Notes: generated by a model from the sequence alone, not told the origin. Counted from the stretch's first letter, positions 1,852 through 33,224 are shown. The stretch: DNA of 64,000 nucleotides from a virus (IMGVR_UViG_3300010167_000010:256001-320000), one strand, 5' to 3'. Numbers and translations are program-made.

Positions 1852-4800
1852 ATGGCAACGCAGCACCTATATTATTTCTTAGTAATCAATAAAGATATAC
1901 AGAATTGGAATACATTTGATTTACCATTAAGTGATAATTCGGTATTTTCTAATGGTTGGCTTGACCAACAATTTCTCACAGATGAAGAATTAAAAGATTT
2001 TAATAATAGATTAAAATATCAACAAGGTATTTATTATAAAAATCAAGAAGTAATAAATATTACTGGTGATGATCCAGATGATCAACTTCAACAAAATTTT
2101 GAAATAAAACAAGATGGTTGGTATGAGATAATGTTAACATCAGCTGGCGGTGGTACGTCTGAATCTGAAAATTATTTTAATCATGATCATATTTATTGTT
2201 GGTTTAGAGAACATGTTGCTACACTACAATTTATTAAATTTTATGGTGATTATTCTTGGTTATATTTTGAAGAACAAACTAATGGTACTATAACTGTTTT
2301 TAAAGGTACATATCGTTGTACCAATTTTGTTTTAATGTTAGATTATGAAGGAAAATGTGAGGGTTTAACTTATGCTAATAAACCAGCTTATAGACAAAAT
2401 GCAGACGGAAGCTTTTCTTCGGATATTGAAAATCACGGTAATTTTTTACAATTTATAGATAATTTAACTGTTCATCAAAATGCTAATAGATATCCCGATA
2501 TATTTTTACCCTTCAGAGCTGCAGTTAGAGCTACAGATGGGACTATTATTACACCAGCTAGACCAGAAATTAGAAATTTTAGAAATTTAACTTTTGAGTT
2601 CGATGAAGAAACTGAAGTTAAAGAAAATTTTGCTTATTCATTTTTATATTTTGATAGACAAGTAGATAATACTAAAGAATTATTTAGAAAATTATTTTTT
2701 ACTGGAAGAATTCGCGGACAATTTAAAGCTAGATCAAAAGATACAGATTGGCAATTAGACTCAAGTAGACTTCAACAAGGAGTATCTTTTGTTCAAAATG
2801 TAAATTCAGCATGGTCAGCAACTAATGAGACTGTTTATTTAAGAAATTGGTATATTCATGATGCAATGAAATTTAATCATAGTGACCCCTGGAACAATTT
2901 TTCCGAGGGTGAAAATAGAATTTTAAGTCAAAATAATCCTACAATAAATAATGCATATTATCCTTTACCAGAAGGCTCTGGGACATGGATTCAACATTAT
3001 AATCCAAACCCAATAATCTTAAATGTCATAGGAGATAAACCTTTAAGATATGGCGGCAACGGTGGAATGTTTCATCGATTTTTAAACTTAGAAAAATCTA
3101 CTTTAAGTTTTGGTATTGGAAAAAATGGATTATCATTTTCAGATTTTTGGGTTATTGGAAATACTAATATTGATAGATACGGAAGATTTAGTGAAGGTTT
3201 AACATCCGGTGCTGGATCATATGTTCAATTAATTGAAAATGATATTACTGTTTTAGTAGCTGGTGGTGGTAGCGTAGCAGGACAAAATGGTGGATACGCA
3301 TCTATAAATAATAGGGATGGGAGGGGCAGTAATGAAAGAGGAGTAGTGTTTAATCTTTTATTACCAGAAGAATTTCAACATAGATTAGGTGGTATGGGAG
3401 ATAATTTTAGTCCTCCTATAGCAAGTAATCCAGATAATCCACAAATTGGGTTTAATTTAAATAGAGAAATAGAATTTGTTTCGCGGGGAAAAGATGGTCG
3501 ATTTTTATATAATAATTCTGAAATTTTAGGAAATGGTTTAGGTGGTAATGGTGCTGGAATATTTAGAACTTTAACAGGTTTTAATTATTATAGAAAATCA
3601 GAATCTGGTCAATTTATAATGAGATATCTTGGCCCAAAATCTTCTGCAACATATTATAATATTTTAGATTATGATGTTACTCCAACTAGTGATATAGCTA
3701 ATATTTCTTTAGATACAAATATTAAAATTCCAGCAGCAACTACTTTAGAATATAAATTTTTATTTAGACAAAATATGGGAATTGATCCTGGCGAAACTAT
3801 AGTTGTTATTGATAGAGATGAAGAAAAATTAGTAGATGATGAAAATATTCCAGAAACATATTTAAGTTTGGCGGGATTTGCTGAACAATATCCAGGTACT
3901 TTTGTTCTTACACAAATAACGCCTAATATTCAAAAATTATCTTTTGTATCTATAAATAAACATATTAAAATTTTTATAGAAACAAGACTACGTCATTATA
4001 GGGTTTTTTATAAAGATCATGATGATATAAGAAGTATTGAAGGAATTCCACAATTTGGTGAAAGGGCTGGGAGAGAAATCGATTTAATAATAACTTTTAA
4101 TAGACCAGACGTAAATTTAGATATTCAAGCTTTAACTTTATATGGAAATTTAAGATTTGGTTTGCAGACTGGGGATATACAAAACGTAACTTCAACTTAT
4201 AATCATTTAAGAAGAGAACAAAGAATTTCATTTATTATGCCAGAACATGATGTAGAACTTCTTATAGAAAATAATATAAAAACGATTTATAAACTTACAA
4301 TGACTCCTAGAAATGCAATAAACAGACCAGCGTCTGGAAATTTACCAGCATTACAAAATGGTATTATTAGTGGGATTCAATGGGGTTATAATATTCATGA
4401 TATAACAAGTCCACTTGCTGATATAGATACTGAAGTTGTTGCAGGACAACAAATTTATGTGAAACTAACTTTACATAGAAGAACTAGAATAGATAGATAT
4501 CAAAGTACTTTTCCAGAAGGAACAATAATTGAAAGAGAAGGTATGAATCTTCAATCTAATCAATTTTCTGATAATGAACAATGGTTTTATTTTAATATGC
4601 CTGAAAGATCTATAAATATAGATTTATTTCTAGAATTAAGAACTTATAAACTTATTTTAATTCCAGATAGATATAGACGTTTAAATCCTTATTCGTTTGA
4701 TGGTAGGGAAGACTATGAACCTGGTGAACGTGCTAATATTATTTTTGAAATAGAAAATTATTATAAATTATCTGAAAAAGGTGGTTTAATAATAAATAAT

Positions 4801-6585
4801 ATTAATTATCCAATTGATTTGAATGATAAAAGAATGCAAATTCAATGTATAGTTAGATTTGATACAGATACGAGAGCTAATGGATATTTTGTTGATTATG
4901 TAGATAATGATAGAATTAGATTTCCAAAAGTAGAATCAGTTCAATTTAATATTATTTTTAGAAATTCTGATATACAAATATTTTTTGATTTAACTTATTT
5001 AAAAAATTCTACACTTTTTTGTTGTGGACAAACAGTAACATCGAACGTTAGAATTATTGTTCATAGTATTTTAAGATTAATGATAGCTGGATCAAAATCT
5101 GGAGATGGTGGAAAGGGGACTGATGGAGGCCCAACACCTAGAAGATCAAACTCCCAATGGCACGGCGGCGCATCGGCCGCAAATGCACTAAGTGGAAGTT
5201 TACGAGGTTTAATGGGGGGCGCTGGTGGAAGCGGATTTATTGGGGGAGATGGTGGTGCAGGTGTAGATGCAGCTGGAGCTAGATTTTTCGTTGTTACTTG
5301 GCAAGGATTTTTACCTTATGATTTAAGAATTTTACAAGAAGATGGCGGTGGTGGTGGCCCAGGTGGCCACGGATTTATTGGTGGGGGCGCGGGTGCTGGT
5401 GGTGGTCAGGGCTCTGCGTCATGGTCTGGAAATGGGTTTAAGGGTGAAGACGGTAGATCTTTTTTACATGATAATAATTTAACAGAAAGTAATAATCATT
5501 CTATATGGCGCGGTGTTTTAGTAGATTGTTTGATAGAAATTGAAGAAGGAATTATTTATATTGCAACCGGTGGTAATGGTGGAAATGGGAGTGGTGGTCC
5601 TGGTGTAGATCAAGGTGAATGGGGAAATTCGGGGGCCGGAGGCGGAGCCGGCGGCCCGTCTTATTTTTATTCACCTACTACTAGATTTGTTATTTTAAGT
5701 CATAATCCAATATGCGCTACTTTTCTAAATAAAAGTGAAGGAGAGGGTACTTCTTTAGTTAATCAATTTAATTTATATCAACAACATTCAACTTTAAATT
5801 TTGATATGGACTTAAATCAATGGAGGAGACAAGGTTTAAATAGAGAAGTATCAGTTGCAGAGTTTTCTGCAGTTAGACCAAATGCACCAGATGATTTTTA
5901 TAAAGGTATTATAGCTTCTGGAAGTAGGGTCGGAAGAATGATTTTTCAAAAAACTCAAAAAAATGGGTCACATACTCAACAACGTGAATGGGGGAATGTA
6001 CCACCAGTATTATTTAATTCTCCTGTAGCCCAACTTTCTCCAGGAAGAAATACATTTTTAGTAGGAGATGAAAGAAACTCAAATTTTATGATATGGGGTG
6101 TTGATACTACAAACGAGCCAAGATTTAGAGGTTATGGTTTTGGTGGTGGCGCAGGACCTGCGCCAATTCCGACTAATCCAGGAAATTGGTATTTAAGTTG
6201 TGAATTATATGGTGATAATTTAAGAATGATTACACAATTTAATTTAGCTATAGGTGGAAGACGCGGGTTTTTCCCAAATTTATTATTTATTGGTGGTGCA
6301 CTTCAAACTCAACGAATATTATTACAACAAGCAGCAAGTAGAATCCCAAGTCTATATGTTTATAATGAATTGACAAGAAATGTTGCATTGAATCAAAGAA
6401 TTGATTGGGCTTATAACGTTGGTTTTGAATATGGGGGCGACTTAATTCCATTTAATGGTGGTGGTTGTAGAATTATATTTTTAGGAGAGAGAAGAAATAA
6501 TATTGCAATTAGTCCAACACAATTAACAGGAACATTTACTACATATAATTATGCAACAAATCAAATTCCTCTTAATAACTTTTAG
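1852..6585 (+). CDS. large glycine-rich putative virion protein (tail fibre/adhesin-like)
   Basis: 1577 aa; Gly-rich segments (LVAGGGS, GGAGGSGFIGGDGGAG / GGPGGHGFIGGGAGAG) and repeated F.MPE..v.l beta-sandwich-like units; late-type motif upstream. Confidence 0.55.
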   Translation: MATQHLYYFLVINKDIQNWNTFDLPLSDNSVFSNGWLDQQFLTDEELKDFNNRLKYQQGIYYKNQEVINITGDDPDDQLQQNFEIKQDGWYEIMLTSAGGGTSESENYFNHDHIYCWFREHVATLQFIKFYGDYSWLYFEEQTNGTITVFKGTYRCTNFVLMLDYEGKCEGLTYANKPAYRQNADGSFSSDIENHGNFLQFIDNLTVHQNANRYPDIFLPFRAAVRATDGTIITPARPEIRNFRNLTFEFDEETEVKENFAYSFLYFDRQVDNTKELFRKLFFTGRIRGQFKARSKDTDWQLDSSRLQQGVSFVQNVNSAWSATNETVYLRNWYIHDAMKFNHSDPWNNFSEGENRILSQNNPTINNAYYPLPEGSGTWIQHYNPNPIILNVIGDKPLRYGGNGGMFHRFLNLEKSTLSFGIGKNGLSFSDFWVIGNTNIDRYGRFSEGLTSGAGSYVQLIENDITVLVAGGGSVAGQNGGYASINNRDGRGSNERGVVFNLLLPEEFQHRLGGMGDNFSPPIASNPDNPQIGFNLNREIEFVSRGKDGRFLYNNSEILGNGLGGNGAGIFRTLTGFNYYRKSESGQFIMRYLGPKSSATYYNILDYDVTPTSDIANISLDTNIKIPAATTLEYKFLFRQNMGIDPGETIVVIDRDEEKLVDDENIPETYLSLAGFAEQYPGTFVLTQITPNIQKLSFVSINKHIKIFIETRLRHYRVFYKDHDDIRSIEGIPQFGERAGREIDLIITFNRPDVNLDIQALTLYGNLRFGLQTGDIQNVTSTYNHLRREQRISFIMPEHDVELLIENNIKTIYKLTMTPRNAINRPASGNLPALQNGIISGIQWGYNIHDITSPLADIDTEVVAGQQIYVKLTLHRRTRIDRYQSTFPEGTIIEREGMNLQSNQFSDNEQWFYFNMPERSINIDLFLELRTYKLILIPDRYRRLNPYSFDGREDYEPGERANIIFEIENYYKLSEKGGLIINNINYPIDLNDKRMQIQCIVRFDTDTRANGYFVDYVDNDRIRFPKVESVQFNIIFRNSDIQIFFDLTYLKNSTLFCCGQTVTSNVRIIVHSILRLMIAGSKSGDGGKGTDGGPTPRRSNSQWHGGASAANALSGSLRGLMGGAGGSGFIGGDGGAGVDAAGARFFVVTWQGFLPYDLRILQEDGGGGGPGGHGFIGGGAGAGGGQGSASWSGNGFKGEDGRSFLHDNNLTESNNHSIWRGVLVDCLIEIEEGIIYIATGGNGGNGSGGPGVDQGEWGNSGAGGGAGGPSYFYSPTTRFVILSHNPICATFLNKSEGEGTSLVNQFNLYQQHSTLNFDMDLNQWRRQGLNREVSVAEFSAVRPNAPDDFYKGIIASGSRVGRMIFQKTQKNGSHTQQREWGNVPPVLFNSPVAQLSPGRNTFLVGDERNSNFMIWGVDTTNEPRFRGYGFGGGAGPAPIPTNPGNWYLSCELYGDNLRMITQFNLAIGGRRGFFPNLLFIGGALQTQRILLQQAASRIPSLYVYNELTRNVALNQRIDWAYNVGFEYGGDLIPFNGGGCRIIFLGERRNNIAISPTQLTGTFTTYNYATNQIPLNNF

Positions 6586-7383: not shown

Positions 7384-8226
7384 ATGATAGATTTTGATAA
7401 AGTGAATAAAATAAATAGAAAAGTCTATAATGGAGATACTTTACAATTAGATAATATTATTTCTGTTGAATTTAGAATAGATTTAATAAATAATATTTTA
7501 AAAGAAGACGATTTTTCTATTTTCTTTTCAAAAAATACTGAACAAAAACATATATCTCATATAGAAAGAATAACTAATGGATTACCGTCTGAATTTTATA
7601 TTACTGATTTTTCTAATTATAAAAAATTACCTACTAAAGGAATAAAAACAAATATTACAGGAAAAAATCTTTTACCATATATATCTAAACTTCTTAATAA
7701 AGAAAATTTTTATATAAATAATTTTTTTTATTTTAATCACTATGATTCTATAAATTTAAAAGGAGAACATCAAGATAAGTATTATTATATTGATATAGAC
7801 TTAGATAATAAAAAATTAAAAAAAGGACTAGGTTTAATTAATAAACGTTTTTATAATAAAAATTTTATAAGTGAAATTCTCCGATACGATTATAAAACTT
7901 TAGAATTAAATAAAATTTATATTTGTCACAATCATTATGATATAAATGACACTTATATGTTTCCAATATTTGAACAATATAAACCATGGCAAATTTTTTA
8001 TTATTTTACACCAGATGATTTAGATAATCCAAAAGAATGCCTTTTTGATGGTAGACAGTGTATGTTAGCTACTAAAGAACTTTTTATTAAATATTTTGGA
8101 ACAGATAATTTACCAGAGTATTCTGATCCAGAGAATAGAGAAAAATTTAATCGTTGTTATATTAGAGAAGCACAATGGTATTGGGAAAGTATACAAGCCG
8201 GAAAAAATGTTTATAATTCTATATAG
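7384..8226 (+). CDS. hypothetical protein
   Basis: 280-aa ORF; ACTAATTA 10 nt before the ATG. Confidence 0.7.
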   Translation: MIDFDKVNKINRKVYNGDTLQLDNIISVEFRIDLINNILKEDDFSIFFSKNTEQKHISHIERITNGLPSEFYITDFSNYKKLPTKGIKTNITGKNLLPYISKLLNKENFYINNFFYFNHYDSINLKGEHQDKYYYIDIDLDNKKLKKGLGLINKRFYNKNFISEILRYDYKTLELNKIYICHNHYDINDTYMFPIFEQYKPWQIFYYFTPDDLDNPKECLFDGRQCMLATKELFIKYFGTDNLPEYSDPENREKFNRCYIREAQWYWESIQAGKNVYNSI

Positions 8227-11200
8227 GAAGAAATTCTGGAAAATATCTTGTAACTATATCAAAATTATCAAAAACAGAAACAAGTGAGATTGGATTATTA
8301 TCTCCATCTTCCATAATTCTAATTTGTGGCCTACCAATATAAAGAGCATTAGCAACTAAAAATTCTTGTATTTTAGCCGCATCCTCGGTCATATCAAATT
8401 CATTTATAAAATTTTCTGATAAATAAGGAATTATATAAATTGAATTTTCTTCAATATTAGAATTTCTTGTAATTAAAACATTTGTGTCAACTACTCTTAT
8501 TACAGATATTTTTCCTATACCAGAATCTGCCATATATATTAAATATTTATTTGTTATATTAAGAGGTCTCCACCATAATAGATAAATATCATCATATTTT
8601 TCTGCAACAATAGTTTGTCTTGGATAAGAAGTTATTTCTTTTGGATGATCAAAAGGTTCTTCATTTAATGCTAAATGTAATTGATTAGAAACATCTTTTT
8701 CACCATGAATTTTTGTCATCATATCATAATCAGTTGGAATATGAGAACCATAAAGAGCAAATCTATCAATTGTTGGTCTATGAATAATAATATCTGATTT
8801 AGTATTTACATTACTTATAATACCTCTAATACCTAAATCACTAGTTTGAATAAAACCATCAACAACTAAACCGCTAACAAAACCATTTACATAACCAAAT
8901 ATATATCTATTACTTAGATTACCCCATCTATTTCCACTTGTTCCACTTGAAGCTCCCCAGGTTGCTGACCAACGTTCAATACTTGTTAATTCACCACTTA
9001 TTATGCCTCTTTCAGCTATTCTTCCATTTACAATACCAGAAATAAATACATTATCAAAATAAGTGAATCCTGGTGATAAAGCCCCTGTTCCCATTGCAGC
9101 AGCTTGATTATAACCATTAAATGTTGCTGTACCAAAATGAGTAAATAATCCAGAATAATCGCCGTATTTTTTATTTCTAATAGCTTCATTAGATAAAATA
9201 ATACCAGGACCACCATTATTTCTCCATAAATTATTAGCTTCTGTTCCTGAAGCTCCAGAGAAATGATTAGAATCTTGATATATTTCCATAATAGCTTGAT
9301 TACCATAGTCTAAGTTTATATCTGTTTCTGTATACTGATAAGCTAATGAATCATAAAAACCAAATAATGGTTGATGGTCAATAATTTGTCCTTGAATATT
9401 TCGTATTGGTACAAGAGCACCACTATTTTCAGATATAGTTGTAGTAACATTTCCTGGACCAATCCCAATAGTATTTTGATTTCCTGAAAGTGATGGAACG
9501 TTAACCCTAACATTATCAATATTTACTTCATACTCAGTTGGTTCTCTTGTAAAATCTATACCAATAATATCTCCAATAAGTATATTACCATCTGAACCTG
9601 TTGGAGAATTTTCGATCCATTCAGGGAAAGTTATAAAAGCCCTATAAGTAATAGTTACAGAATTAGAATTAGAAGAATCGTTTGCAAAACCAGTATTTAC
9701 AGTAGCACTAACAGATGAATTAGATGTTCCACCATTAAAAGTAATTGGATTAGGAATTGATATATTTTCTCCAAAAGAAATATTTCTATTAGAATTATGA
9801 TGTTGTAAAATAATATTTCCAGGTGTCCAGGCTGGTTGTTGTTTTAATTGGGCTATATAAGTTGGTGGGACTTCTGGTATATCTGGGATTGGTGGATCAA
9901 CATCAGGATCTCCTGGAATAAATGGTGATCCTGGGTTCGTTTGTATAATATCTAATTCTAATGGAATAAAAGTATTAGTAACATCAAATATTTTTACTAT
10001 ATTAGGATATTCTGGAATTAAAACAGTTGCTCTTCCATGAACTGACACATCATTATGCCCATTAACTGTAGTCATAAATCCAGATAATGTTCCGTTAACC
10101 CGACCACTAATATTTAATGCTTGAGTTCTTCTAATAGTTCCAGATATCCACTCATCTTCAATTGGTCTAATGTATTGATCATGTTTTAATTCGATTCCAC
10201 TTGTTAAATCAGCTCTAATAATTTGTTCACCTAAATCGAAATAATTTCTATATAATCTTAAACCAGAAATTGGTCCAATATTATTTATTCCAGATAAATT
10301 AGAATGAATTTTTGTATTTATATCTTCGCCTTCGCGTTGGCCTTGCCAAATACCACTATAATTAAAATCGTGAGTACCAGAAGAATTAAATCGATATTTC
10401 ATGAAATTATTCCCATGCATATCTGTTTTTACTAAATTAAAAGTTCTATATTCATCTCCTACGTCTGGGCTTCCATCTGCAGGCCACCATTCGCTTACAC
10501 CTTCAGAATTAGTTCGATATTCACCGCCCCAACCCCAAGGATTATCCATGTAAGTCATCATTGTAACTGAGTGAACGCCAGAAGTTAATCGAGAATCTAC
10601 ACCAGCTGATATATTCATTCTATGTAATTCATTTAATTGTTGTTCAGTAAATCCCATTACTTCTTCACGAGATTCTTGTTCGGTCATATAAAAATGAGCT
10701 GTCCACTTTACTCCTGAAAAATGTTCTACATTAAATAAACTTGGATCTTTAGGTCTCCAATAATCTACAACTGAACTTATATTTTGTCTATTAAGAATAT
10801 AAGTAAATTTTGGTTTATATTGATAATCTTTATTAGTAAAATTTTCAGGTTTATGGATCGGTCTTATTTTTAAAGTCCAACCAGACGATATCTTATGTTT
10901 TTCAAAACCAAAAGCTGAATATTCTCCATTATATTTTATGTTTGCTTCTAAATGAGAAAATGATTCAGAACTATTTTTTAATATAAGTCTATTATTTATA
11001 TCATTTTTATCAAAAGGATAATTTGGTCTAAAAGTATAAAAACCAGTTGAAGATCTATCATATTGTTTATATTTATCTATAACAGTTAAATCAGCATTTA
11101 TTGAATGAGTATCTATATCACAATTTTCTCTTATATAAGATAATTTTGAAATAATATCGTAAAGAATACCTTCAACAGATTGGGAAGCAAATGATGATTG

Positions 11201-14200
11201 ATATATCATCACTCCTGGGATATTAGGATCTTCAATTATTACTCTATCATTGTCACCCATCATATCTGAGTGCCACCATCTATTATAAGTATTAGAACCT
11301 AACCAAAGATCTTTTCTAAAATTAAAATAATTTGTATTTCTATTTTCTTTTATATGGCTAATTGGCCATGCAAAAGGTCTTCCTCTTGTTGTAAAAACAT
11401 TTCCATCATTAAAAGGCACTTCAAATTGATAGCCGCCTTCTCTAGTACCCGTATCTCTATTGAAAAATGAATGCGATTTTTGTATATAAATATTTTTTGC
11501 TGAATCATTTGCAGATTGTACTCGAGTATCTGGGGCAGGTAAACTTGTTTGAATATAGTGATTAGAAATACCTTCCGCGTTAAATCCTCCTTGTTTAGCT
11601 AACCACCAAATATAAACTCTGTGAAAATTTCCATTTGAAGTTCCACCATTACTATTTATTAGATTAAGCCAATCTTGTTCTGTTACATAATTACCAAATA
11701 ATTCATTATTTATATCTATAAAATTAGAATGATATGCTTCTGCGGAAGTAATATCTCTCGTTATATTATTTATAACATTAAATCTTCTCATAGCACCCAT
11801 TTGACGAAGTATCCCACCTTCATCTAAACAAGCGTTTAATTTTTCGTATTTATCTAATTGACTTTGAATTTGTAAACCATGAATACCTTTTGGCATTGTT
11901 TCATAATCTGAACCAAATAAAGCTCTTTCTATTCTTAATAATCTGTCTTGTGTTTCTTTTGCTGCATAATTTAATAAACCAATATTTGTTTGAAATACTT
12001 GATATTCACCACCTGTTGTATTTCCATAACTATCTCTTACAACATTACTAAACATCATATTTATTTCTTGAACAATATGTTCCCATTCACCTCTATGTCT
12101 TATATTACTCGCATTAATAGAAGCGTATTGATAAGATGTACCGCTTATTGGGATGTAATTTATTGATGTTGTACCATCTCCATTATCTACTTCAATTTCT
12201 TGTGGTGGAAATATATGTCTAATAAAATCATTTGGTAACCATTTCTCTAAACTAACATTTCGAGGATCTGTTAAATCACCACTTGTCATCCAATCTCTTG
12301 CTAAAGTAGTAATTCTTCTATTATTTTTATTTAAATCAGAAGTATAATTAAAAAATCCTACTGGTACTTCGTGTAAAGTTTTAAGTGCTGATCTTGGTGT
12401 TAAATATAAACCAGATGGATTTTCTTGAGTTCTTCCTTCAATATAATTTCCATAGTGATAATCTATAGTTTCATTTGTCCAAGAATTGAACTCAGTTATA
12501 TTTTCATCTGCAGTAGATGGGGCAACTAATTTAGGAGCAAACTCAGCTAATAAACCAACAATTTGATTATCAAAATCATATTGCCAATCTATACTTCTTT
12601 GATTTAAAACACCCGAGGCCCAATTTGTTACAATTCTTTTTTCAGTTACAAAATTAACTGTTTGAGCTCCCGTTAAATCTGGATCCCAGTGTGGACCATA
12701 AATAACGTTATGTTGTTTTCTATATCTCCCAGAAATTGGGGAGTCTTGTTTAATTTGTATTTGTGAAGCACCTGACATATTTAATATCCAAGATGTTTCA
12801 TCGTTTATCCCAGTAATGCCACTATGCATTTCACCAAAAAATAAAGTATCTTCAGTTACTAAATTTTGGCCATCTGTATGTGGTTTCCATGGAAAATGTT
12901 CTACCAATTGATTCAAAAATAAACTATGATATTGAACAGGTCTTCTTCTAATAAATATTTGAATTAAAAGTTGTCTATCAGGCCTTCGTCCATGTGGCCA
13001 ACATAATCCTAAACATTGGCTATTTGGAATATCACTCGGGCCACCTGGTTTAGTTGCCATTCTTAAATACCAAGAACCTAATACTGGATCAAAGTTTATT
13101 ACCCATTCAAATCCACACCACAACCCTTGTCCATTAGTATAAAAACCAGGTGAAAGATAAACGCCCATATCTACATTATGAATACCTACTGGTCCTTGTC
13201 TTGGAACTTTTGCAACTATATCATAATTTTCTATATTTCGACCTTGTCCATCAATATGCGCACCTAAATTTACTAAGTAATCAATATTAAATCTAATATT
13301 AGTGCTAACATAATCCATTGGATTAAGGCCTTCTATTTGTGGATCATAAATAAAATTAAAAGACATTTGAGGCCAAACATATTGCATATCATCTGGTGCA
13401 CCCTCTTGATTATAATTTATTTGAGAAGATACAACACCATTTTGTGCACTATAAAATACATCTTTAAATTTAAAGTAACCACCAATTATAGAATTTGGAC
13501 CAGAATCAAAAGTAAAATTGCCATCAATATCTACCCATGGCCCTGTTGGGTTTCCATCTGGAGAATATAAATACATTCCAGTATGCATTGTAGTTCTTAA
13601 TAATTGCTCAAAATTTATTGCACCACCACTTACTTTATGTATTTCATTTATATTTATTTCTATAAACCCCGGTTCAACTATTATTCTATCAGTTTCTCTA
13701 TCGGTATATGCAGGTTTAATAGTTCCGATAGCATCGAATTTTTTAAACATTCGAGGATATCTACAATCTACTAAAACTCTATTATAATCTAAAATTATAC
13801 CAACTTTATATTCAAACGAGTCTGCTGCCCCCTCATGTGTTATAGCACCATTTGCTAAATAAAGTTCTTTACCAAAATCTTCAACATTAAATTGAAAACC
13901 GCCTCTTATTATATTCCCTGAAGCGTCTTTTATTTGCTCACCTTCTAAAATACCTAATCGATGACACAATACATTTGTATCACAATATTCTTCTAAATCT
14001 ATTTCATCGTTTTCATTTGGCTTAGCTAAAAAGGCTCCAATTGGACTTCGTTGTGCACTATTTCTTAATAAAATTTCATCTGAAGTAATAACGATACCAA
14101 TTGGTCTATTATTTAATTCTTCTATTTTAACAAAAATTAATCTATCTGCATTTTGATTTTCATATTTTATCAATCTATTATTTGGATCAGAAGGTGCAAT

Positions 14201-14938
14201 TCTAACATCAAATTGTGTAGAGTCAATCATACCTCTAACGTCACCAGCTGGCTGAACTTCAATAACTATTTGTTGTTGATCTAATAAATCAGCTTTTCTA
14301 GGAGCATCTGCTAGTCTTCCAACTGAAATAATATTTGCACCATTATAATAAGCGTGTGTAATATCAATAGTTAACCCACCCGGTTTTCCAAAGTTATCGT
14401 CTGGATGATTTGATACATAAACTGGTTTACCAATATCATCTTCGTAATTCCAAACATATCTAACTTTATTTCCAGATGTATCTGTAATATAAGGTGGATG
14501 AAATATATTTTCTCGAGTATCATTTAAATCATATTCTATTTGACCCCGTGATAAAATATGTATATGATTTAATATATTAGGAAAAGTTGGATTTACAACA
14601 GCATTACCTGGTTCTAATGCAATACCAATACACCATTGATATTTTCTAGGATTAGTTGGTACTACTGCGGGGTCAGCTGAACTTTGTACGATAGCATCTA
14701 AGTCTTCAAATAAACCAACTGAAACTGGTTGTCCTCTTTTAATATAAGCTTCATTTGGAAGAATAACTTCGTTATTATCTTTTACATTATTACCAACTTC
14801 ATATACTGACAATGGGACAACCCAATTTGATGGTTCATCTGAAGCTATTTTATATCTTAATTGTTTAGACTTTTCATTTATCCAAATATTTCCTGGCTGA
14901 TTTAATCCATTTAATGATACATCAATTTTATCATTCAT
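8219..14938 (-). CDS. very large putative virion structural protein (tail/baseplate/fibre)
   Basis: 2239 aa, beta-rich, Pro-rich linker, late-type motif upstream; function inferred from size and context. Confidence 0.5.
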   Translation of the reverse strand: MNDKIDVSLNGLNQPGNIWINEKSKQLRYKIASDEPSNWVVPLSVYEVGNNVKDNNEVILPNEAYIKRGQPVSVGLFEDLDAIVQSSADPAVVPTNPRKYQWCIGIALEPGNAVVNPTFPNILNHIHILSRGQIEYDLNDTRENIFHPPYITDTSGNKVRYVWNYEDDIGKPVYVSNHPDDNFGKPGGLTIDITHAYYNGANIISVGRLADAPRKADLLDQQQIVIEVQPAGDVRGMIDSTQFDVRIAPSDPNNRLIKYENQNADRLIFVKIEELNNRPIGIVITSDEILLRNSAQRSPIGAFLAKPNENDEIDLEEYCDTNVLCHRLGILEGEQIKDASGNIIRGGFQFNVEDFGKELYLANGAITHEGAADSFEYKVGIILDYNRVLVDCRYPRMFKKFDAIGTIKPAYTDRETDRIIVEPGFIEININEIHKVSGGAINFEQLLRTTMHTGMYLYSPDGNPTGPWVDIDGNFTFDSGPNSIIGGYFKFKDVFYSAQNGVVSSQINYNQEGAPDDMQYVWPQMSFNFIYDPQIEGLNPMDYVSTNIRFNIDYLVNLGAHIDGQGRNIENYDIVAKVPRQGPVGIHNVDMGVYLSPGFYTNGQGLWCGFEWVINFDPVLGSWYLRMATKPGGPSDIPNSQCLGLCWPHGRRPDRQLLIQIFIRRRPVQYHSLFLNQLVEHFPWKPHTDGQNLVTEDTLFFGEMHSGITGINDETSWILNMSGASQIQIKQDSPISGRYRKQHNVIYGPHWDPDLTGAQTVNFVTEKRIVTNWASGVLNQRSIDWQYDFDNQIVGLLAEFAPKLVAPSTADENITEFNSWTNETIDYHYGNYIEGRTQENPSGLYLTPRSALKTLHEVPVGFFNYTSDLNKNNRRITTLARDWMTSGDLTDPRNVSLEKWLPNDFIRHIFPPQEIEVDNGDGTTSINYIPISGTSYQYASINASNIRHRGEWEHIVQEINMMFSNVVRDSYGNTTGGEYQVFQTNIGLLNYAAKETQDRLLRIERALFGSDYETMPKGIHGLQIQSQLDKYEKLNACLDEGGILRQMGAMRRFNVINNITRDITSAEAYHSNFIDINNELFGNYVTEQDWLNLINSNGGTSNGNFHRVYIWWLAKQGGFNAEGISNHYIQTSLPAPDTRVQSANDSAKNIYIQKSHSFFNRDTGTREGGYQFEVPFNDGNVFTTRGRPFAWPISHIKENRNTNYFNFRKDLWLGSNTYNRWWHSDMMGDNDRVIIEDPNIPGVMIYQSSFASQSVEGILYDIISKLSYIRENCDIDTHSINADLTVIDKYKQYDRSSTGFYTFRPNYPFDKNDINNRLILKNSSESFSHLEANIKYNGEYSAFGFEKHKISSGWTLKIRPIHKPENFTNKDYQYKPKFTYILNRQNISSVVDYWRPKDPSLFNVEHFSGVKWTAHFYMTEQESREEVMGFTEQQLNELHRMNISAGVDSRLTSGVHSVTMMTYMDNPWGWGGEYRTNSEGVSEWWPADGSPDVGDEYRTFNLVKTDMHGNNFMKYRFNSSGTHDFNYSGIWQGQREGEDINTKIHSNLSGINNIGPISGLRLYRNYFDLGEQIIRADLTSGIELKHDQYIRPIEDEWISGTIRRTQALNISGRVNGTLSGFMTTVNGHNDVSVHGRATVLIPEYPNIVKIFDVTNTFIPLELDIIQTNPGSPFIPGDPDVDPPIPDIPEVPPTYIAQLKQQPAWTPGNIILQHHNSNRNISFGENISIPNPITFNGGTSNSSVSATVNTGFANDSSNSNSVTITYRAFITFPEWIENSPTGSDGNILIGDIIGIDFTREPTEYEVNIDNVRVNVPSLSGNQNTIGIGPGNVTTTISENSGALVPIRNIQGQIIDHQPLFGFYDSLAYQYTETDINLDYGNQAIMEIYQDSNHFSGASGTEANNLWRNNGGPGIILSNEAIRNKKYGDYSGLFTHFGTATFNGYNQAAAMGTGALSPGFTYFDNVFISGIVNGRIAERGIISGELTSIERWSATWGASSGTSGNRWGNLSNRYIFGYVNGFVSGLVVDGFIQTSDLGIRGIISNVNTKSDIIIHRPTIDRFALYGSHIPTDYDMMTKIHGEKDVSNQLHLALNEEPFDHPKEITSYPRQTIVAEKYDDIYLLWWRPLNITNKYLIYMADSGIGKISVIRVVDTNVLITRNSNIEENSIYIIPYLSENFINEFDMTEDAAKIQEFLVANALYIGRPQIRIMEDGDNNPISLVSVFDNFDIVTRYFPEFLPI

Positions 14939-14953
14939 ATTATTTAGTTTCCT

Positions 14954-17209
14954 TTAGAACATTTCATCACTACGTACAGGAATTAATGTAGATTGTTTAG
15001 TAGAATGCCATTTTCCATCAGCTCCTAAATAAACTGCCCATGAAGGTACAACTTCTTTATTATCGGTAGTCATATCGTCTGTAATTTCTCCTAAACCTAT
15101 TCCATAACTTATAGTTTCTCTGTGATATCTTTCATCATATACTGTATTAGGTTGATTAAAAGAATTTTTAGCATCATATTCTTTATGTAATTGATATAAT
15201 CCACCAGCATTAACATTATATTCTTTATCGTCTGAATTATTTCTGCCAATCATTCCATTATATACACCAAAATTTTGTATATGTGTAATATAATAACATA
15301 AATTCCAACGTAAACCTTTTAATTGAGATTCTATTTCTCGTAATGACCAAGGATTAGTTGATGGATTATATGATGTTGGTAAATTAATTGTATCTATTCT
15401 TTCTTTAATTAAATCTATATTTCCACTATTTACAATTAAAGTATTTAAGTCTATAAGTTCTTTAATTATATTATATTCTATTTGAGATGGATTATTTATC
15501 CAAGATGTAATTTCATAATGTGGTTCTTCAGCATCTAAATTATAATCTATATTTGTTGGATCACCTATTACATCAGCATTTGTTCTATAATTTTTAAATT
15601 TATGGCTTCTAATTGATGGTCGAGTATCAACAGTAACACGTCTATCATTTAAACCTCTAGGATAACCAGCTTCTTCATTTTCTGAAACAGCTTCATTATC
15701 TGGTTTTCTACCTCCAGCTAATTCTTTAATCATTTTCCAAAGTTCATCTATTGTTGGAGATATAATACGACCATTCATTATTAAATTTCCATCTTTTGGA
15801 ATTAAGATTGGAAAATCGTTATAATCTTCTGAACCTTTTCTAGATTCTGGATCAAACCAAACTTGGGGTGGAGTATCTAATGCTTCTGATGTAAAATGTG
15901 GGGTATCCATTCCATCAATTTGCAATTCGAGTGGCTCAACAGGAAGTGCACCAATTCTACTATGTGGATCATCTGCATTTTCTATAATAAAATCCATTTG
16001 TTGACGGAAATTAAAATTGCCTTGTCTAGTTGGTAATAATGTATCTCTTAGAATATCTACTGATGGAGTTGTTGATGGTAAATAAGGTCGCGATGCTCTT
16101 GCTAAATCGCGAGCTGCTATTGCTCCTTCTGAAAATAATTTATTATATCTTTTAAAATCACCTGTTTTAGTTAACATTAAATTTTCGTGAATAACTTTAG
16201 CTGATTTATTTAGAGATTGATCGAAATCTCTATAATCTATATAATCGGCAAAGAAAGAACATTTAATCCAAACATAACAATGTTCTAATAAATATCTTAA
16301 TACTGGGTTTATATGAAGAACTATAATCCCATTACATGAAACAAAATCGTTAACTTCATTTTGCGTTAAATTTATTCTAGCATTATAATATTTCATTAAA
16401 TTTTGCCAAACATTAACAGAAGAATAATTTACACAAAGTCCATTATAAGCTCTAATTTGATAAGTGTCAACATTCGTGCTATCATCATATTCACCAAAAA
16501 GAAATCTATCTTCAAAAGCCCTATCTCTATTAGATAAAATAATGTCTGCACCATCAACATTTCTAGAAACATAATCTTCTTCAACTGCAATTTTCCAAGG
16601 ATAGGGATAATCAGCCCAAGTATTTGGTTCTTCTCTATTTAATGGAACTAATACTGAATTATTATAAAAATCGAAAGATGTTTGTGGTTTTAATGCTGCA
16701 TCTTTATCCCATATTTTAAATCCTCGTGACTTAAAAAAATCTAAACTATCAGGATCTTGTGGGTTTAATAAAGTTAACAAATTTCCTATATCTGTTTGCG
16801 AAGCATTTCTTATATATGTAGTAACATTCGCTGGATTTAAATGTAATGGTTTAACTCTTTTATCAAATTTTGGTAAACAAATATCAAAACCAGATTTTGC
16901 CCATTGTTCAAATGTTGTTCCACCATCTCCAGGTGAGTCTTCTTTTATTAAATCTCTATAACCTAATTGAAAACTAGGAAATCTATAAATATTTTGATCA
17001 AATACTATAATATTATGTTGTAATTCTAAACCCATAGACTTAAATGAAGATTCAGTTGCATTTTTTACATATCTGGTACACAATCTATTTGCAGCATCAG
17101 TAAAAAACATCAAATCAAATAGAGAAACTTGCATTGCAACAGGTCTATAGTTACTTTGTGATAATGGAACCTTCCATTCTCTATATAAAGTTATCGGATT
17201 ATTAGCCAT
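14954..17209 (-). CDS. putative virion structural protein
   Basis: 751 aa, co-oriented with the 2239-aa gene; ACTAACTA 10 nt before the ATG. Confidence 0.45.
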   Translation of the reverse strand: MANNPITLYREWKVPLSQSNYRPVAMQVSLFDLMFFTDAANRLCTRYVKNATESSFKSMGLELQHNIIVFDQNIYRFPSFQLGYRDLIKEDSPGDGGTTFEQWAKSGFDICLPKFDKRVKPLHLNPANVTTYIRNASQTDIGNLLTLLNPQDPDSLDFFKSRGFKIWDKDAALKPQTSFDFYNNSVLVPLNREEPNTWADYPYPWKIAVEEDYVSRNVDGADIILSNRDRAFEDRFLFGEYDDSTNVDTYQIRAYNGLCVNYSSVNVWQNLMKYYNARINLTQNEVNDFVSCNGIIVLHINPVLRYLLEHCYVWIKCSFFADYIDYRDFDQSLNKSAKVIHENLMLTKTGDFKRYNKLFSEGAIAARDLARASRPYLPSTTPSVDILRDTLLPTRQGNFNFRQQMDFIIENADDPHSRIGALPVEPLELQIDGMDTPHFTSEALDTPPQVWFDPESRKGSEDYNDFPILIPKDGNLIMNGRIISPTIDELWKMIKELAGGRKPDNEAVSENEEAGYPRGLNDRRVTVDTRPSIRSHKFKNYRTNADVIGDPTNIDYNLDAEEPHYEITSWINNPSQIEYNIIKELIDLNTLIVNSGNIDLIKERIDTINLPTSYNPSTNPWSLREIESQLKGLRWNLCYYITHIQNFGVYNGMIGRNNSDDKEYNVNAGGLYQLHKEYDAKNSFNQPNTVYDERYHRETISYGIGLGEITDDMTTDNKEVVPSWAVYLGADGKWHSTKQSTLIPVRSDEMF

Positions 17210-17240
17210 AATAGTTAGTTGTAGAAGTTTTAATTACATT

Positions 17241-17269
17241 TTGAACGCTATATGTTAATTTCTTATATA
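17241..17269 (+). promoter_or_regulatory. sigma70-like early-type promoter
   Basis: TTGAAC-N17-TATATA directly upstream of the topoisomerase IB ATG. Confidence 0.65.
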
Positions 17270-17273
17270 ATAT

Positions 17274-18977
17274 ATGAATATGAGTAAACAAGCACGGTTC
17301 AAATCACTACAATCAAATGGTCCAGTATTCCCCAAAAAATGGGAACATAAGGGCTACCACGCGGCTGGAGAAAAGCTTCCCCTTCTTGCAGAAGAAATGG
17401 CTTGGAAAGCAGCTCGTTTTATTGGTTCAGATTATGAAAAAGAATGTTTCGCATCTGATTCTAATATGTGGAAATGCTTTTATCCAGAATTGACCAAATC
17501 GCAACAAAAATTATCACATGCTGATTATATTGCGATGATGAGTGGTATGAAGGCAACACAAGAGATTTTAAAAGAAGAAAAGAAAGCTCTTTCAAAAGAA
17601 GAAAAAATAGCAATTAAAAATGAAAAAGAAGCTCTTAAAGAAAAATACGGATTCGCAATTCTTGATGGTGAAAGTGTTCCCCTTTCCGGATATATGATTG
17701 AAGAGTCAAATTGGATTTTAACTCGCGGTAAAGATCCCCGAAAATTTTGTTGGAAATATGCTGTAGAAAAATCTGATGTTACTTTGAATATTGTAAATGG
17801 AAAACCAGTTTCAGGATTTAATTGTATTTCTGATAATACAGTTATTTGGGTAATGCGATATAAAATTAAATGCGGAAGACCTGAGATGAAGGCTTTTATG
17901 GAGCTCAATAAAATTATTGCTTTTGCTCCTTCTGTTTCAGTTCGTCAAGCTAATAATTCTGGAAAATTTGATAAATCTAAAAATATTCTTAAAAATTGGA
18001 ATAAAATTCAATCTCAAGTTCTTGCTGATGCTACCGATTGTTCATTAAAGAAAAATCCTAAGCATGAAGCACTTATCGTGTATCTTATTCAAGAAACTGG
18101 TATTCGTATTGGTGGTGAAAAAGATGAACGAAGAGCTAAAACTTATGGAATGAGTACTCTTGAAAAAAGACATATAACTCTTGGTTCAGATTTTACAGTA
18201 ACATTTGATTTTCTTGGAAAAGATAGTGTTCCTGAAACGAGAACAATAATTATTGATGAAAATGTTTGGTATAATCTTGAAAGTCTTTTAGCTTGTAGAG
18301 ATACAAATGAAAGAATATTTAATAATGATATAGACGTTAATGGTTACCTCAAGAAAATACATCCTGGTGCAACAGTTAAAAATCTTCGTACTGTAAAATG
18401 TAATGAAGTTTTGGTAAAAAATCTTAAAACAAAAAAAGTTACAAAAACAAATACTGAGGCCGAAAAGCTTAGAGCAATATTTGAAGCAAATCTCGAAATT
18501 GCAAAGACAATGAATCACCAAAAAAATATTGGTAAAAATCAAAAAGAAGGTGAAGTAAAAATTGCTGAAAAAGTTCAAAAAGCGAAAGCTCGTGTAAAAG
18601 AACTTAAGAAAAAGCATAAAGAGAAAATAATTAAACTTGATACTCAGGTAGCAAAAATTAAAATTGCTTTCAAAGGCATGAAGATATTAAAAGAAAAACT
18701 TGCCAAAATTGAAGAAACAAAAATTAAAATGATTGCTCAAATGGAAAGAGCAGTAATGAGCATTGAAAAAACAGAATTTGCTCTTGACAAGAAAAAACTT
18801 ACTGCGGATATTGCTTTGGGAACTTCCCTTGCAAATTATGCTGACCCTAACGTAATATATTCTTATTGCAAATACGTAGATCTCCCAATTGAAAGAATAT
18901 ATTCTGCTAGTCAGAGAAAAAATCTAACTTTTGCTGAAAGTGTAGATGCAAATTATTGGATAAATTACCCAAGTTAA
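17274..18977 (+). CDS. top1: DNA topoisomerase IB, long eukaryote/Thaumarchaeota-like form
   Basis: NGPVF, YGFAILDG, TRGKDP, GIRIGGEK, FDFLGKDS, KNLRT, MNHQK, Lys-rich coiled-coil linker, IALGTSLANYADP; complete R-K-R-H-Y catalytic set. Confidence 0.93.
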   Translation: MNMSKQARFKSLQSNGPVFPKKWEHKGYHAAGEKLPLLAEEMAWKAARFIGSDYEKECFASDSNMWKCFYPELTKSQQKLSHADYIAMMSGMKATQEILKEEKKALSKEEKIAIKNEKEALKEKYGFAILDGESVPLSGYMIEESNWILTRGKDPRKFCWKYAVEKSDVTLNIVNGKPVSGFNCISDNTVIWVMRYKIKCGRPEMKAFMELNKIIAFAPSVSVRQANNSGKFDKSKNILKNWNKIQSQVLADATDCSLKKNPKHEALIVYLIQETGIRIGGEKDERRAKTYGMSTLEKRHITLGSDFTVTFDFLGKDSVPETRTIIIDENVWYNLESLLACRDTNERIFNNDIDVNGYLKKIHPGATVKNLRTVKCNEVLVKNLKTKKVTKTNTEAEKLRAIFEANLEIAKTMNHQKNIGKNQKEGEVKIAEKVQKAKARVKELKKKHKEKIIKLDTQVAKIKIAFKGMKILKEKLAKIEETKIKMIAQMERAVMSIEKTEFALDKKKLTADIALGTSLANYADPNVIYSYCKYVDLPIERIYSASQRKNLTFAESVDANYWINYPS

Positions 18978-19432
18978 TTATGAATATGAAAAATTGGAAA
19001 TACAGTTGGAAAAGCGTAACAGACAAAGATTATATAGACTCTATTATGATCTTCTGGAAGTTTTTTAAAGAAAATTATCAAAATGTTTTCGTTTATAATG
19101 CTTGCCATTATGAAATTCGTTTAATAACTTTAAATATTGGAAGAGGAAAAGAAATTCTTTCTTCAGAAGCTGCTTCCAAATCTACACAAAAAGATGAACA
19201 TCATCTTGTAGAAGCAAAACAATTTCTTGATGAATTTAAATACTGTGTTGATAACAAAATTGAATTTACAAGAAAGGATGCAAAATCTTGGCTTATTAAG
19301 GCTAGAAATATTTACGTTACTAAACCAGAGCACAATATTTTACATTCTAAAGTTTTCAAAGATTATAGAAAAAATAATCCGACAGAGAATATAATAAAAG
19401 TTTTAGAAAAATTTGGAATTATTTTAATTTAA
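18956..19432 (+). CDS. putative degenerate HNH-type nuclease
   Basis: DEHHL...NIYVTKPEHNILH resembles an HNH core; start probably at a downstream Met. Confidence 0.35.
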   Translation: MDKLPKLIMNMKNWKYSWKSVTDKDYIDSIMIFWKFFKENYQNVFVYNACHYEIRLITLNIGRGKEILSSEAASKSTQKDEHHLVEAKQFLDEFKYCVDNKIEFTRKDAKSWLIKARNIYVTKPEHNILHSKVFKDYRKNNPTENIIKVLEKFGIILI

Positions 19433-19460
19433 TTCTTATATTTTATTAAGAGGAAAGAAA

Positions 19461-21896
19461 ATGATTTTAGACAACAAGAATTATAATATTGAAAACAATT
19501 TGGAAACTGAATCTAGCGAATTTGAAATTGCTGCTAATGCAAAAATGTTTGATATATTATCAAATAAAATTTATGAAGATCCAATCAGAGCAGTAATTCG
19601 TGAGCTTTCCTGTAATGCTATCGATGCTAATATTGAAGTAGAAAATATTGAACCATTTAAAGTTTATCTTCCAACCCAAAATTATAAATCTTTAATTATT
19701 GAAGATAACGGTATAGGCATGACCCATGAAGATGTTATGACAGTTTATAAATCTTATGGAAAATCTACTAAATCTAATTCTAATAAGGTAATTGGTGCAT
19801 TAGGTTTAGGCGGGAAAACACCTCTTGCTTATACTTCACAATTTATTTTAGAAACTGCAAAAGATGGAAAGAAAAATAGTTATATAATTTTTAAAGATGA
19901 AGATGGTATTCCAAACGTTACTTTAACTTCTTCAGAAGATACTGATATTTCTGGAACAAAAATTGAAATGATTGTTCGTAATGAAGATATCGATCTTTTT
20001 ATTACAGCAGCTATTAAAACTTTTGTTTTCTTTGATAAAATGCCGATAATTATGAGAGGAGAAGACGAGTTTTATAGAGTAATATATCAAAAATTTAGTA
20101 ATACTATGGAAATAGGAAAGGCTAAATTAGCTTTTGATGAAGCTAGATTTTTATTAAAGAATGATTATATTTCTAATGAAAGCAACGGTGGCGATATTAT
20201 TATTCGTAAAATATTAAATAGCTATAATAGTACACATGGAATTATTATGGGACAAGTTTATTATTCAGTAAATCCTAAAGCAATTTTAAGAGATGGTTAT
20301 GGAACAGCTGCTGAAGAAGTATTAAATTTTCCAAATTATAGTAATTATTCTGGCATAAGAAAAGTTATTCATGTAAATCTTGGTGATGTATCTTTTCAAC
20401 CTTCACGTGAAGTATTAAATTATAATAAATCTACAATTGCTTTACTTCAAAATAGATTTTATAATCATTTTGAAAATTATATCGTAAATATGGAAAATTA
20501 CAAGGATCCAAAAACTTTCTTGAAGAATTTTTCTAAAATAAATTATGCAAAAGATGTAGTAAAAATCTCTACATGGGATGATACAAATCAAGATGTTTCT
20601 TCTATAAGAGATTTATATAAAAATGTTATAAATTATTTGTATTCTGAAATTGATCAAAAAGAAGCAAATTATTATATTAAGCAACGCCATAATGGAACTT
20701 GGGAAGTACAAGCTATAGCTCAAGACAGCGCATCAAAAATACAAGACTTAAACACTACAAAAAGTATTTTTTCTGATATATTTGTAGAAAACAAAATAAA
20801 AAATATTATTGTATTAGATGATGCAAATATTTCTGAAAAACTGGATAATTTTCATAAGAAAGCTTTAGAAAAACAAAGATTTTATTTTACTACTCCAATA
20901 AGTTTAAGAAATAAACTTGTTCTTCTTGATAAAACTATAAATACATTATGTGTAACTGAAAAGACAGCAAAAAAATTAAAAGCTTTTCTAAAAATAGATT
21001 TTATAAATTGTTCTAAATTAGTAGTTACAAAAGAAGCTAAAATTAAAACAAAATCTGAAAGAGATACTTCTGCAAAATGTTATAATTATACTGAAAGAAG
21101 ATATGCCGAAATTAATGAAGTATTAAAAATTACTAAGAAAAATAAAGTTACATATGAATGTTTTGAAGGAGAAGTAAATAAGAAAGGTTGGTGGTATACT
21201 CCTTTATTTGATGTAATAAATAAGAGTACAAAAATAAATAAGCAGGCTTGTATTAAAATAAATTATCATGGAAGCTATAATAATTGCAGTAATAGAGTAG
21301 AAGATTTTAATACGATATTTAATATGCTTCCCAGTAATAGACCGCATCATTATTTGGTAGATTGGAATTTCTTTAAAAAATATATTATTGGAAATAAAAA
21401 TTGGGTTCATATAAATGATTATGCAACCAATTTAATTAAGGATAATTTTAATACAATTTCAACTAACGCATTAAATATAATTTTATTTGGTGATTCTCCA
21501 TTTTATAGATCAACTCAAGCTGAGGCATTATTAAAACATGGAACTGAAAAATATCTTAATTTTGAAAATACAGCTTTTGGAATAGAATGTCAAAGAAAAA
21601 TTAATGAATCGTTTAATAAAGAAACTGATATTAGCTTAAATAAAAAGACAGTATCTACATTTCATAATTCTCTTATGGGAATGAAAGAATATTTTAGTTC
21701 AGACAGTTTTAATAAACTATTAAAAGATTTTGAAGAATTAAAATTAAAATTAGAAGCTGTCAATATAAAAAGAGTAAATTATTGTACAGAAATATATGAA
21801 AAATATCCGATGATTATTTATGCATTAAAATCTGATTTCGATAAAGATCACTTAATAAATTATATTGCAGAAAAAGAGAGCTTAGTATTAAAATGA
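19461..21896 (+). CDS. rIIA: rIIA-like protein (N-terminal GHKL ATPase domain)
   Basis: FEIAANAKMFDILSNKIYEDPIRAVIRELSCNAIDA, IEDNGIGM, YGKSTKSNSNKVIGALGLGGK, GDVSFQPSREVLNY. Confidence 0.85.
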   Translation: MILDNKNYNIENNLETESSEFEIAANAKMFDILSNKIYEDPIRAVIRELSCNAIDANIEVENIEPFKVYLPTQNYKSLIIEDNGIGMTHEDVMTVYKSYGKSTKSNSNKVIGALGLGGKTPLAYTSQFILETAKDGKKNSYIIFKDEDGIPNVTLTSSEDTDISGTKIEMIVRNEDIDLFITAAIKTFVFFDKMPIIMRGEDEFYRVIYQKFSNTMEIGKAKLAFDEARFLLKNDYISNESNGGDIIIRKILNSYNSTHGIIMGQVYYSVNPKAILRDGYGTAAEEVLNFPNYSNYSGIRKVIHVNLGDVSFQPSREVLNYNKSTIALLQNRFYNHFENYIVNMENYKDPKTFLKNFSKINYAKDVVKISTWDDTNQDVSSIRDLYKNVINYLYSEIDQKEANYYIKQRHNGTWEVQAIAQDSASKIQDLNTTKSIFSDIFVENKIKNIIVLDDANISEKLDNFHKKALEKQRFYFTTPISLRNKLVLLDKTINTLCVTEKTAKKLKAFLKIDFINCSKLVVTKEAKIKTKSERDTSAKCYNYTERRYAEINEVLKITKKNKVTYECFEGEVNKKGWWYTPLFDVINKSTKINKQACIKINYHGSYNNCSNRVEDFNTIFNMLPSNRPHHYLVDWNFFKKYIIGNKNWVHINDYATNLIKDNFNTISTNALNIILFGDSPFYRSTQAEALLKHGTEKYLNFENTAFGIECQRKINESFNKETDISLNKKTVSTFHNSLMGMKEYFSSDSFNKLLKDFEELKLKLEAVNIKRVNYCTEIYEKYPMIIYALKSDFDKDHLINYIAEKESLVLK

Positions 21897-33197: not shown

Positions 33198-33224
33198 GAG
33201 GAGCTTTTCAGCTCCTCTTTTTTT
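33198..33224 (+). terminator. Rho-independent terminator
   Basis: GAGGAGCT-tttc-AGCTCCTC followed by T7. Confidence 0.8.

Follow-up and report, generated by a model that had tools for sequence, protein, structure and literature searches.

A long, TOP1-type topoisomerase IB in the genome of a huge tailed bacteriophage

A 64,000-nt stretch of viral DNA (hereafter, the window; positions 256001-320000 of an IMG/VR record of 329,018 bp that has direct terminal repeats and is rated 100% complete by CheckV) encodes a 567-aa protein (P0001) that belongs to the long, TOP1-type topoisomerases IB (TopIB) and not to the short poxvirus/bacterial type. With a probability of roughly 0.8, we consider this protein a functional long TopIB, encoded by a vertically inherited core gene and acting as the phage's own swivelase for its 329-kb genome. 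Directly shown are the protein's family, fold and intact catalytic residues, the phage context, synteny and conservation of its gene, and the lack of other detectable topoisomerase families in the genome.

Domain architecture and active site

The gene spans positions 17274-18977 on the plus strand, begins with an ATG and lies opposite a stop-rich minus strand; its assignment as a long-type TopIB gene draws on the reading frame, Pfam, phmmer, AlphaFold2 and Foldseek. An alternative genetic code was ruled out, as table 11 gives long, open frames. The initial annotation, made from the sequence alone, had placed the start at 17241, which is instead the first base of a promoter-like TTGAAC. The Pfam search recovered three domains, all scoring above the gathering cut-offs. 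The cap/DNA-binding region (residues 8-197; 17295-17864, plus strand), which contains R151, matches Topoisom_I_N (PF02919; 3.3e-22, 79.5 bits versus a cut-off of 25) over profile positions 2-201 of 213. [quoted passage not shown] Both profiles that had been proposed as a check of the long form, Topoisom_I_N and Topoisom_I, were thus found, while the same Pfam search returned no viral N-terminal domain family of the virDNA-topo-I_N type.

Every motif singled out beforehand—NGPVF, EEMA, YGFAILDG, TRGKDP, DNTVIW, IALGTSLANYADP and PIERIYSASQR—is present in the translation, and the parallel to human TOP1 that had been drawn from them extends end to end: when searched against PDB sequences with phmmer, residues 8-555 align with the human enzyme (E 2e-42). 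Caldiarchaeum TOP1 (6z01; 1e-38) and Leishmania TOP1 (2e-33) were also recovered, whereas for the short enzymes of variola, vaccinia and Deinococcus the match is confined to the core (1e-5 to 1e-6).

An AlphaFold2 model, built from an alignment of 35 relatives, reached a mean pLDDT of 92 and a pTM of 0.82. Its top Foldseek match is DNA-bound human TOP1 (1k4t; TM 0.83 over 591 columns). The TM score to the Caldiarchaeum enzyme is just 0.46, because the 6z01 crystal captures an open apo form and our model is closed. Short TopIBs superpose over about 230 columns only (3e-7). The long, Lys-rich linker noticed in the initial annotation is modeled as two long helices (residues 423-465 and 471-509; 18540-18800, plus strand; pLDDT about 90), with Lys at 25 of 87 residues; these helices, together with the whole-chain superposition on 1k4t, identify it as the antiparallel coiled coil that joins core and C-terminal domain.

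Aligned to the human protein by phmmer (human numbering taken from the 1a31 chain as index + 174, with human Y723 at index 549), R151 corresponds to R364, R278 to R488, K316 to K532, D317 to D533, R372 to R590, H415 to H632, N521 to N722 and Y522 to Y723. The catalytic set R278/K316/R372/H415/Y522 is invariant in the 35 relatives and in 90 long TopIB rows, as are the equivalents of R364 and D533. Retention of the catalytic set and of the camptothecin-contact residues R364, D533 and N722, as previously suggested, therefore holds for the window protein; across the 35 phage rows, the N722 position is more variable (N in 21, S in 11, A in 3). A small, strongly supported clade of metagenomic long TopIBs adjoining the eukaryote/NCLDV group (P0261, P0093, P0195) carries His at the R364 equivalent and Ser at the D533 equivalent, with the catalytic pentad intact.

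Carrier genome, locus and predicted role

Matches to PHROG families include, in the region that directly precedes the window, a baseplate wedge protein, a Dda-like helicase, a clamp loader and an SbcC-like nuclease, and, as the next conserved gene downstream of TopIB, an rIIA homologue (19461-21896, plus strand; phrog_612, 5e-85); a DnaB-type helicase and a GroEL-like chaperonin are encoded within the window. Pfam models for terminase (PF03237, PF17289), sheath (PF04984) and gp23 (PF07068) gave no match in the 329-kb genome, whose structural genes must therefore be divergent, and phage identity accordingly rests on the PHROG matches. No NCLDV capsid family was found in this genome, whereas two giant-virus bins scored 1e-55 in the same search. 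By its gene content, the carrier is confirmed as a tailed bacteriophage, a T4-like huge phage, so that the proposal of a eukaryote/archaea-type long TopIB in a bacteriophage stands on both the three domains and the phage genes. A eukaryotic virus or contamination was ruled out by synteny in five independent records together with these genes. The genome has a G+C content of 28%; around the TopIB gene it is about 0.28-0.30, low as throughout the window and with no break at the gene.

The virus is known from an uncultivated record and its host is likewise uncultivated. A full-length flagellin gene (50492-51346; Flagellin_N and Flagellin_C, Atlas clusters) lies closest, among Atlas clusters, to flagellins of Spirochaetota, which provides a lead toward a spirochaete host; it is possibly a motility-interference gene. 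Two genes in the window are very large, encoding 1577 aa (1852-6585, plus strand) and 2239 aa (8219-14938, minus strand), the latter kept beside the TopIB locus in related phages at 36-41% identity. Neither Pfam nor PHROG returned a match for the neighbouring genes of 751, 2239, 1577 and 762 aa.

The order of the 2239-aa gene, a 751-aa gene, TopIB, rIIA and two small genes (g2239-g751-TopIB-rIIA-g284-g253) is kept in four related phage contigs (L002-L005), with the first two genes on the minus strand and TopIB and rIIA on the plus strand. The 751-aa gene (14954-17209, minus strand), of unknown family, is thus a conserved, divergently oriented upstream neighbour. Identity between the window and these contigs amounts to 52-64% for TopIB, as compared to 36-44% for rIIA, 34-53% for the 751-aa and 36-41% for the 2239-aa protein. 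With synteny kept and identity above that of its neighbours, TopIB is an old, well-constrained resident of the lineage. The gap between TopIB and rIIA (18978-19460) measures about 480 bp in the window and about 30 nt in L002 and L003. A 158-aa ORF (18956-19432; TTG start, internal ATGs, no Pfam match) lies in this gap and may be an inserted small gene.

Ahead of the TopIB gene lies a promoter-like motif (17241-17269, plus strand), recognized by sequence and by conservation upstream of the L002, L003 and L005 orthologues. It consists of TTGAAC (17241-17246), 17 nt and TATATA—overlapping a TATAAT at 17266-17271—and stops 5 nt short of the ATG; the 64-nt gap preceding this start codon shows no Shine-Dalgarno sequence. 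TTTTGAA and CTTATA(T/A)(A/T) blocks are common to the upstream regions of four TopIB orthologues, and the ATG follows the -10-like box by 5-7 nt in four of the five sequences compared (window included). Across the window, TTGAAN{16,20}CTTATA occurs seven times, always on the plus strand (941, 6388, 17241, 33223, 45764, 46039, 59552), as compared to 1.25 occurrences expected by shuffling, which makes TTGAAY-N16-20-CTTATA a candidate for a class of early or middle phage promoters. For the sites at 33223 and 59552, the next ATGs (33274 and 59604) lie about 25 nt beyond the motif. A simple sigma-70 scan did not list the 17241 site, since it accepts only second hexamers with T in sixth place and spacers of ≤18 nt.

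This arrangement supports a near-leaderless TopIB mRNA made from a sigma-70-like promoter of the phage, in line with the nearly leaderless gene foreseen in the initial annotation; by analogy with the sigma-70-like early promoters of T4, expression would be early. At the start of the divergent 751-aa gene, a CATAATA(G/A)TTAGT block (window 17195-17222, minus strand) is invariant in five phages; read on the minus strand, it gives ACTAAYTATT-ATG, a motif abutting the start codon, with no Shine-Dalgarno sequence. The two divergent genes thus seem to depend on promoters of different classes.

Profiles for type IIA and type IA topoisomerases (DNA_topoisoIV, DNA_gyraseB, Topoisom_bac) found no match in the 329-kb genome by Pfam, but were positive in 12 to 14 of 14 control genomes. 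A very divergent enzyme could escape them; Pfam models also missed the capsid, terminase and sheath of this phage. Among 20 TopIB-bearing phage-like records, a single one (G013) encodes a Topo IIA. As that record also has a split TopIB, the two enzymes are not strictly exclusive.

In T4, topoisomerase II (gp39/gp52/gp60) removes torsional stress during phage replication. We infer that the window protein is enzymatically active and serves a comparable purpose. N-terminal cap and catalytic core would close around the DNA duplex as a clamp; Tyr522, helped by R278, K316, R372 and H415, would nick one strand and form a 3'-phosphotyrosyl link; the DNA would swivel, with the coiled-coil linker controlling the rotation, before the enzyme reseals the nick. 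The predicted outcome is that supercoils of both signs are relaxed with no need for ATP or Mg. As a vertically inherited core gene of a T4-like huge-phage lineage, here probably infecting spirochaetes, TopIB would act as the swivelase for phage replication and transcription in place of the type II topoisomerase of T4-type phages. The phage could also draw on host gyrase and topo I.

A different target is conceivable: produced early, TopIB might relax the host chromosome, collapsing host transcription and counteracting gyrase, rather than serve phage DNA. Its sigma-70-like promoter suggests expression by unmodified host polymerase, its gene adjoins rIIA, which is an early gene in T4, and TopIB enzymes relax both supercoil signs without cofactors. 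However, no sequence feature directs the protein to host DNA specifically, and the status of a core gene encoding the sole detectable topoisomerase fits a need on phage DNA. We judge such a host-takeover function unlikely, albeit compatible with, and not mutually exclusive to, the proposed swivelase role on the phage genome.

Distribution and phylogeny

An exhaustive profile-free search with the window protein returned 1887 proteins at E ≤ 1e-3, with 194 at E ≤ 1e-30. About 40 representatives (50% clustering), 545-590 aa in length, align end to end at 30-66% identity. In a word-indexed search, the nearest relatives (52-64% identity) reside on contigs of up to 328 kb, followed by Thor-/Thaumarchaeota and eukaryotes at 27-31%. 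An alignment-based scan of IMG/VR identified 160 relatives, many of which come from giant-virus bins and show 25-30% identity. Of the TopIB-bearing IMG/VR records that are not bins, 13 (this genome included) contain rIIA and three contain gp23, and NCLDV capsid is found in none. Within 185,579 species genomes, the phage-type motifs matched just three contigs, all from MAGs, with giant-virus contamination in at least one of these bins. Neither tblastn nor megablast gave a match among GenBank phages (50,697 records for tblastn), a set from which the window's own record may have been withheld. Neither outcome set out beforehand as a refutation was observed: Topoisom_I_N does match, and the long form has no counterpart among these phage records. 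As long TopIB is widespread in uncultivated huge-phage contigs, that of the window is no singleton but one member of a large clade. A non-exhaustive literature search turned up no account of long TopIB from phages; the phage-borne branch thus appears undescribed, with the window providing a further intact member.

Published work assigns long TopIB to eukaryotes and archaea, and short TopIB to poxviruses, mimivirus and bacteria (PMC2621148, PMC8748870, PMC8097291). The initial annotation had likewise regarded the long form as known from eukaryotes and some archaea. Both occurrences were recovered here, yet the long form is not confined to these groups, as it is common in metagenomic giant-virus bins.

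The searches also turned up several unusual records. Contigs from two MAGs, labeled 'Candidatus Kapaibacterium' (L091/G031) and 'Rickettsiales' (L090/G030), carry a giant-virus-type long TopIB; the presence of three NCLDV capsid genes in the former bin (G031) indicates contamination with giant-virus DNA. In the 385,934-bp IMG/VR record that encodes a Topo IIA (G013), TopIB is split into adjacent ORFs of 307 and 266 aa (L014:10001-11750), with the split point near window residues 303/308, inside the catalytic core and between the R488 and K532 equivalents. Another locus (L033:9983-10783, G021) bears the C-terminal half alone, and the representative search contained many half-length relatives (P0121, P0123, P0128, P0130, P0136 and others). 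A 121,517-bp, 92% complete IMG/VR record (L048, G024) encodes a long TopIB that branches with Thorarchaeota (SH-aLRT 95) and not with the phage group; rIIA, gp23 and NCLDV capsid are all absent from it, and the record may stem from an Asgard-archaeal virus or represent a fragment of archaeal DNA.

Trees were inferred with FastTree (308 rows) and with IQ-TREE under LG+G4 (90 full-length rows, 539 columns). Both resolve three sectors, namely archaea, eukaryotes plus giant-virus sequences, and the phage rows. In the LG+G4 tree, archaea (Thaum- and Thorarchaeota) are supported at 100/100 and eukaryotes plus giant-virus sequences at 100/99. All 35 phage-associated rows share the remaining side, at a UFBoot of 74 and an SH-aLRT of 97, and stay together in 75% of bootstrap trees; among them, the window TopIB and those of L002-L005 form a 100/100 clade. 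A rooted tree (LG+C20+F+G4) used 12 short bacterial TopIBs as outgroup over 219 core columns only, the outgroup having a very long branch and a misaligned C-terminal Tyr region. Here, the root fell in a thaumarchaeal grade, and the phage rows (91) and eukaryotes plus NCLDV (94) came out as sister groups, with an SH-aLRT of 97 for the pair. A root between phages and all others was 3.4 log-likelihood units better and not rejected (p-AU 0.59). Because the AU test does not fix the root, we make no claim as to donor or direction.

In these trees, no sampled clade of cellular or giant-virus sequences encloses the phage TopIBs, a topology that favours a separate phage-borne lineage over recent cross-domain transfer. 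Of the two origins offered in the initial annotation, cross-domain transfer or a deep viral lineage, the latter is hence the one favoured and a recent transfer is disfavoured, within the limits set by the unfixed root. Doubtful, though worth stating, is the stronger version, in which phage-borne long TopIBs constitute an ancient viral lineage that is sister to, or the source of, eukaryotic and giant-virus TOP1. If true, viruses would have carried TOP1 into the eukaryotic stem, in place of vertical inheritance from archaea, much as a viral source has been proposed for eukaryotic Topo IIA (PMC9752973).

That the gene was instead lately acquired in a shared habitat, whether the donor was archaeal, eukaryotic or a giant virus, is very unlikely. 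Best identities outside the phage group—Thor-/Thaumarchaeota, eukaryotes and giant-virus bins—are just 27-31%, and the unfixed root leaves room for an ancient transfer in either direction. A recent event, however, is at odds with the separation of the phage rows from the archaeal and the eukaryote/NCLDV sides, with the depth of the phage group (30-66% identity, about 40 clusters at the 50% level) and its spread over several phage types, with the synteny kept in the window's subclade, and with the even G+C around the gene.

Comparison with known topoisomerases

TopIB fold and chemistry are common to tyrosine recombinases, and a junction-resolution role has been proposed for the poxvirus topoisomerase. 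That the window protein is a DNA-processing or recombination enzyme, resolving replication intermediates or acting at the terminal repeats rather than as a swivelase, is nonetheless highly improbable: despite the direct terminal repeats of the genome and weak Foldseek matches to P2 integrase and XerH, ranked after the topoisomerases, the whole TOP1 architecture is retained, including the cap and the rotation-controlling linker, and no recombinase-specific feature or associated site was seen.

The window TopIB has implications for both TOP1 evolution and phage biology. Long TopIB has been treated as a marker of eukaryotes and a few archaeal phyla and was used to argue that their common ancestor already had it (PMC2621148). 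The deep, diverse branch in tailed phages of bacteria adds a third reservoir of the long form and the giant-virus bins a fourth, and scenarios for the origin of TOP1 must include both. Huge T4-like phages may be able to run a genome of more than 300 kb with a swivelase replacing the phage type II topoisomerase. As small, tail-less TOP1 homologues with a linker of human length, phage TopIBs could also serve as models for linker function and for camptothecin-type poisons.

The likely functional counterpart, T4 topoisomerase II, is an unrelated, ATP-dependent type IIA enzyme; T4-type topoisomerase II had no match in this genome (Pfam) or in 19 of the 20 TopIB-bearing phage-like records. The short TopIBs of vaccinia/variola (2H7G), Deinococcus (2F4Q), mimivirus and bacteria share the core fold and Tyr chemistry, but measure about 310-400 aa, have a different, small N-terminal domain and lack the linker; 12 aligned bacterial representatives carry Asn at the position of window His415. 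TopIBs of giant-virus (NCLDV) bins are virus-encoded, too, and full-length, with every domain present and 25-30% identity across residues 8-561, yet they group with eukaryotes, come from records with NCLDV capsids and have short linkers, with median His-to-Tyr distances of 68-73 residues as compared to 95 in eukaryotes and 210 in Thorarchaeota. Archaeal TOP1 (CsTOP1, 6Z01; Thaumarchaeota, Thorarchaeota) is likewise long and tail-less (about 520-560 aa) but forms its own clade apart from the phage rows; linker helices are shorter in CsTOP1 and most archaeal TOP1, and much longer in some Asgard archaea (PMC8748870). Human/eukaryotic TOP1 (Topo70; 1K4T, 1A36, 1A31) has the same cap, core, coiled-coil linker and C-terminal Tyr domain. 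Compared to the human enzyme, to which it is about 25-30% identical, the window protein dispenses with the long, charged N-terminal extension of eukaryotic enzymes, has a longer linker (His-to-Tyr distance of 107 versus 91 residues) and is encoded by a phage, behind a bacterial-type promoter.
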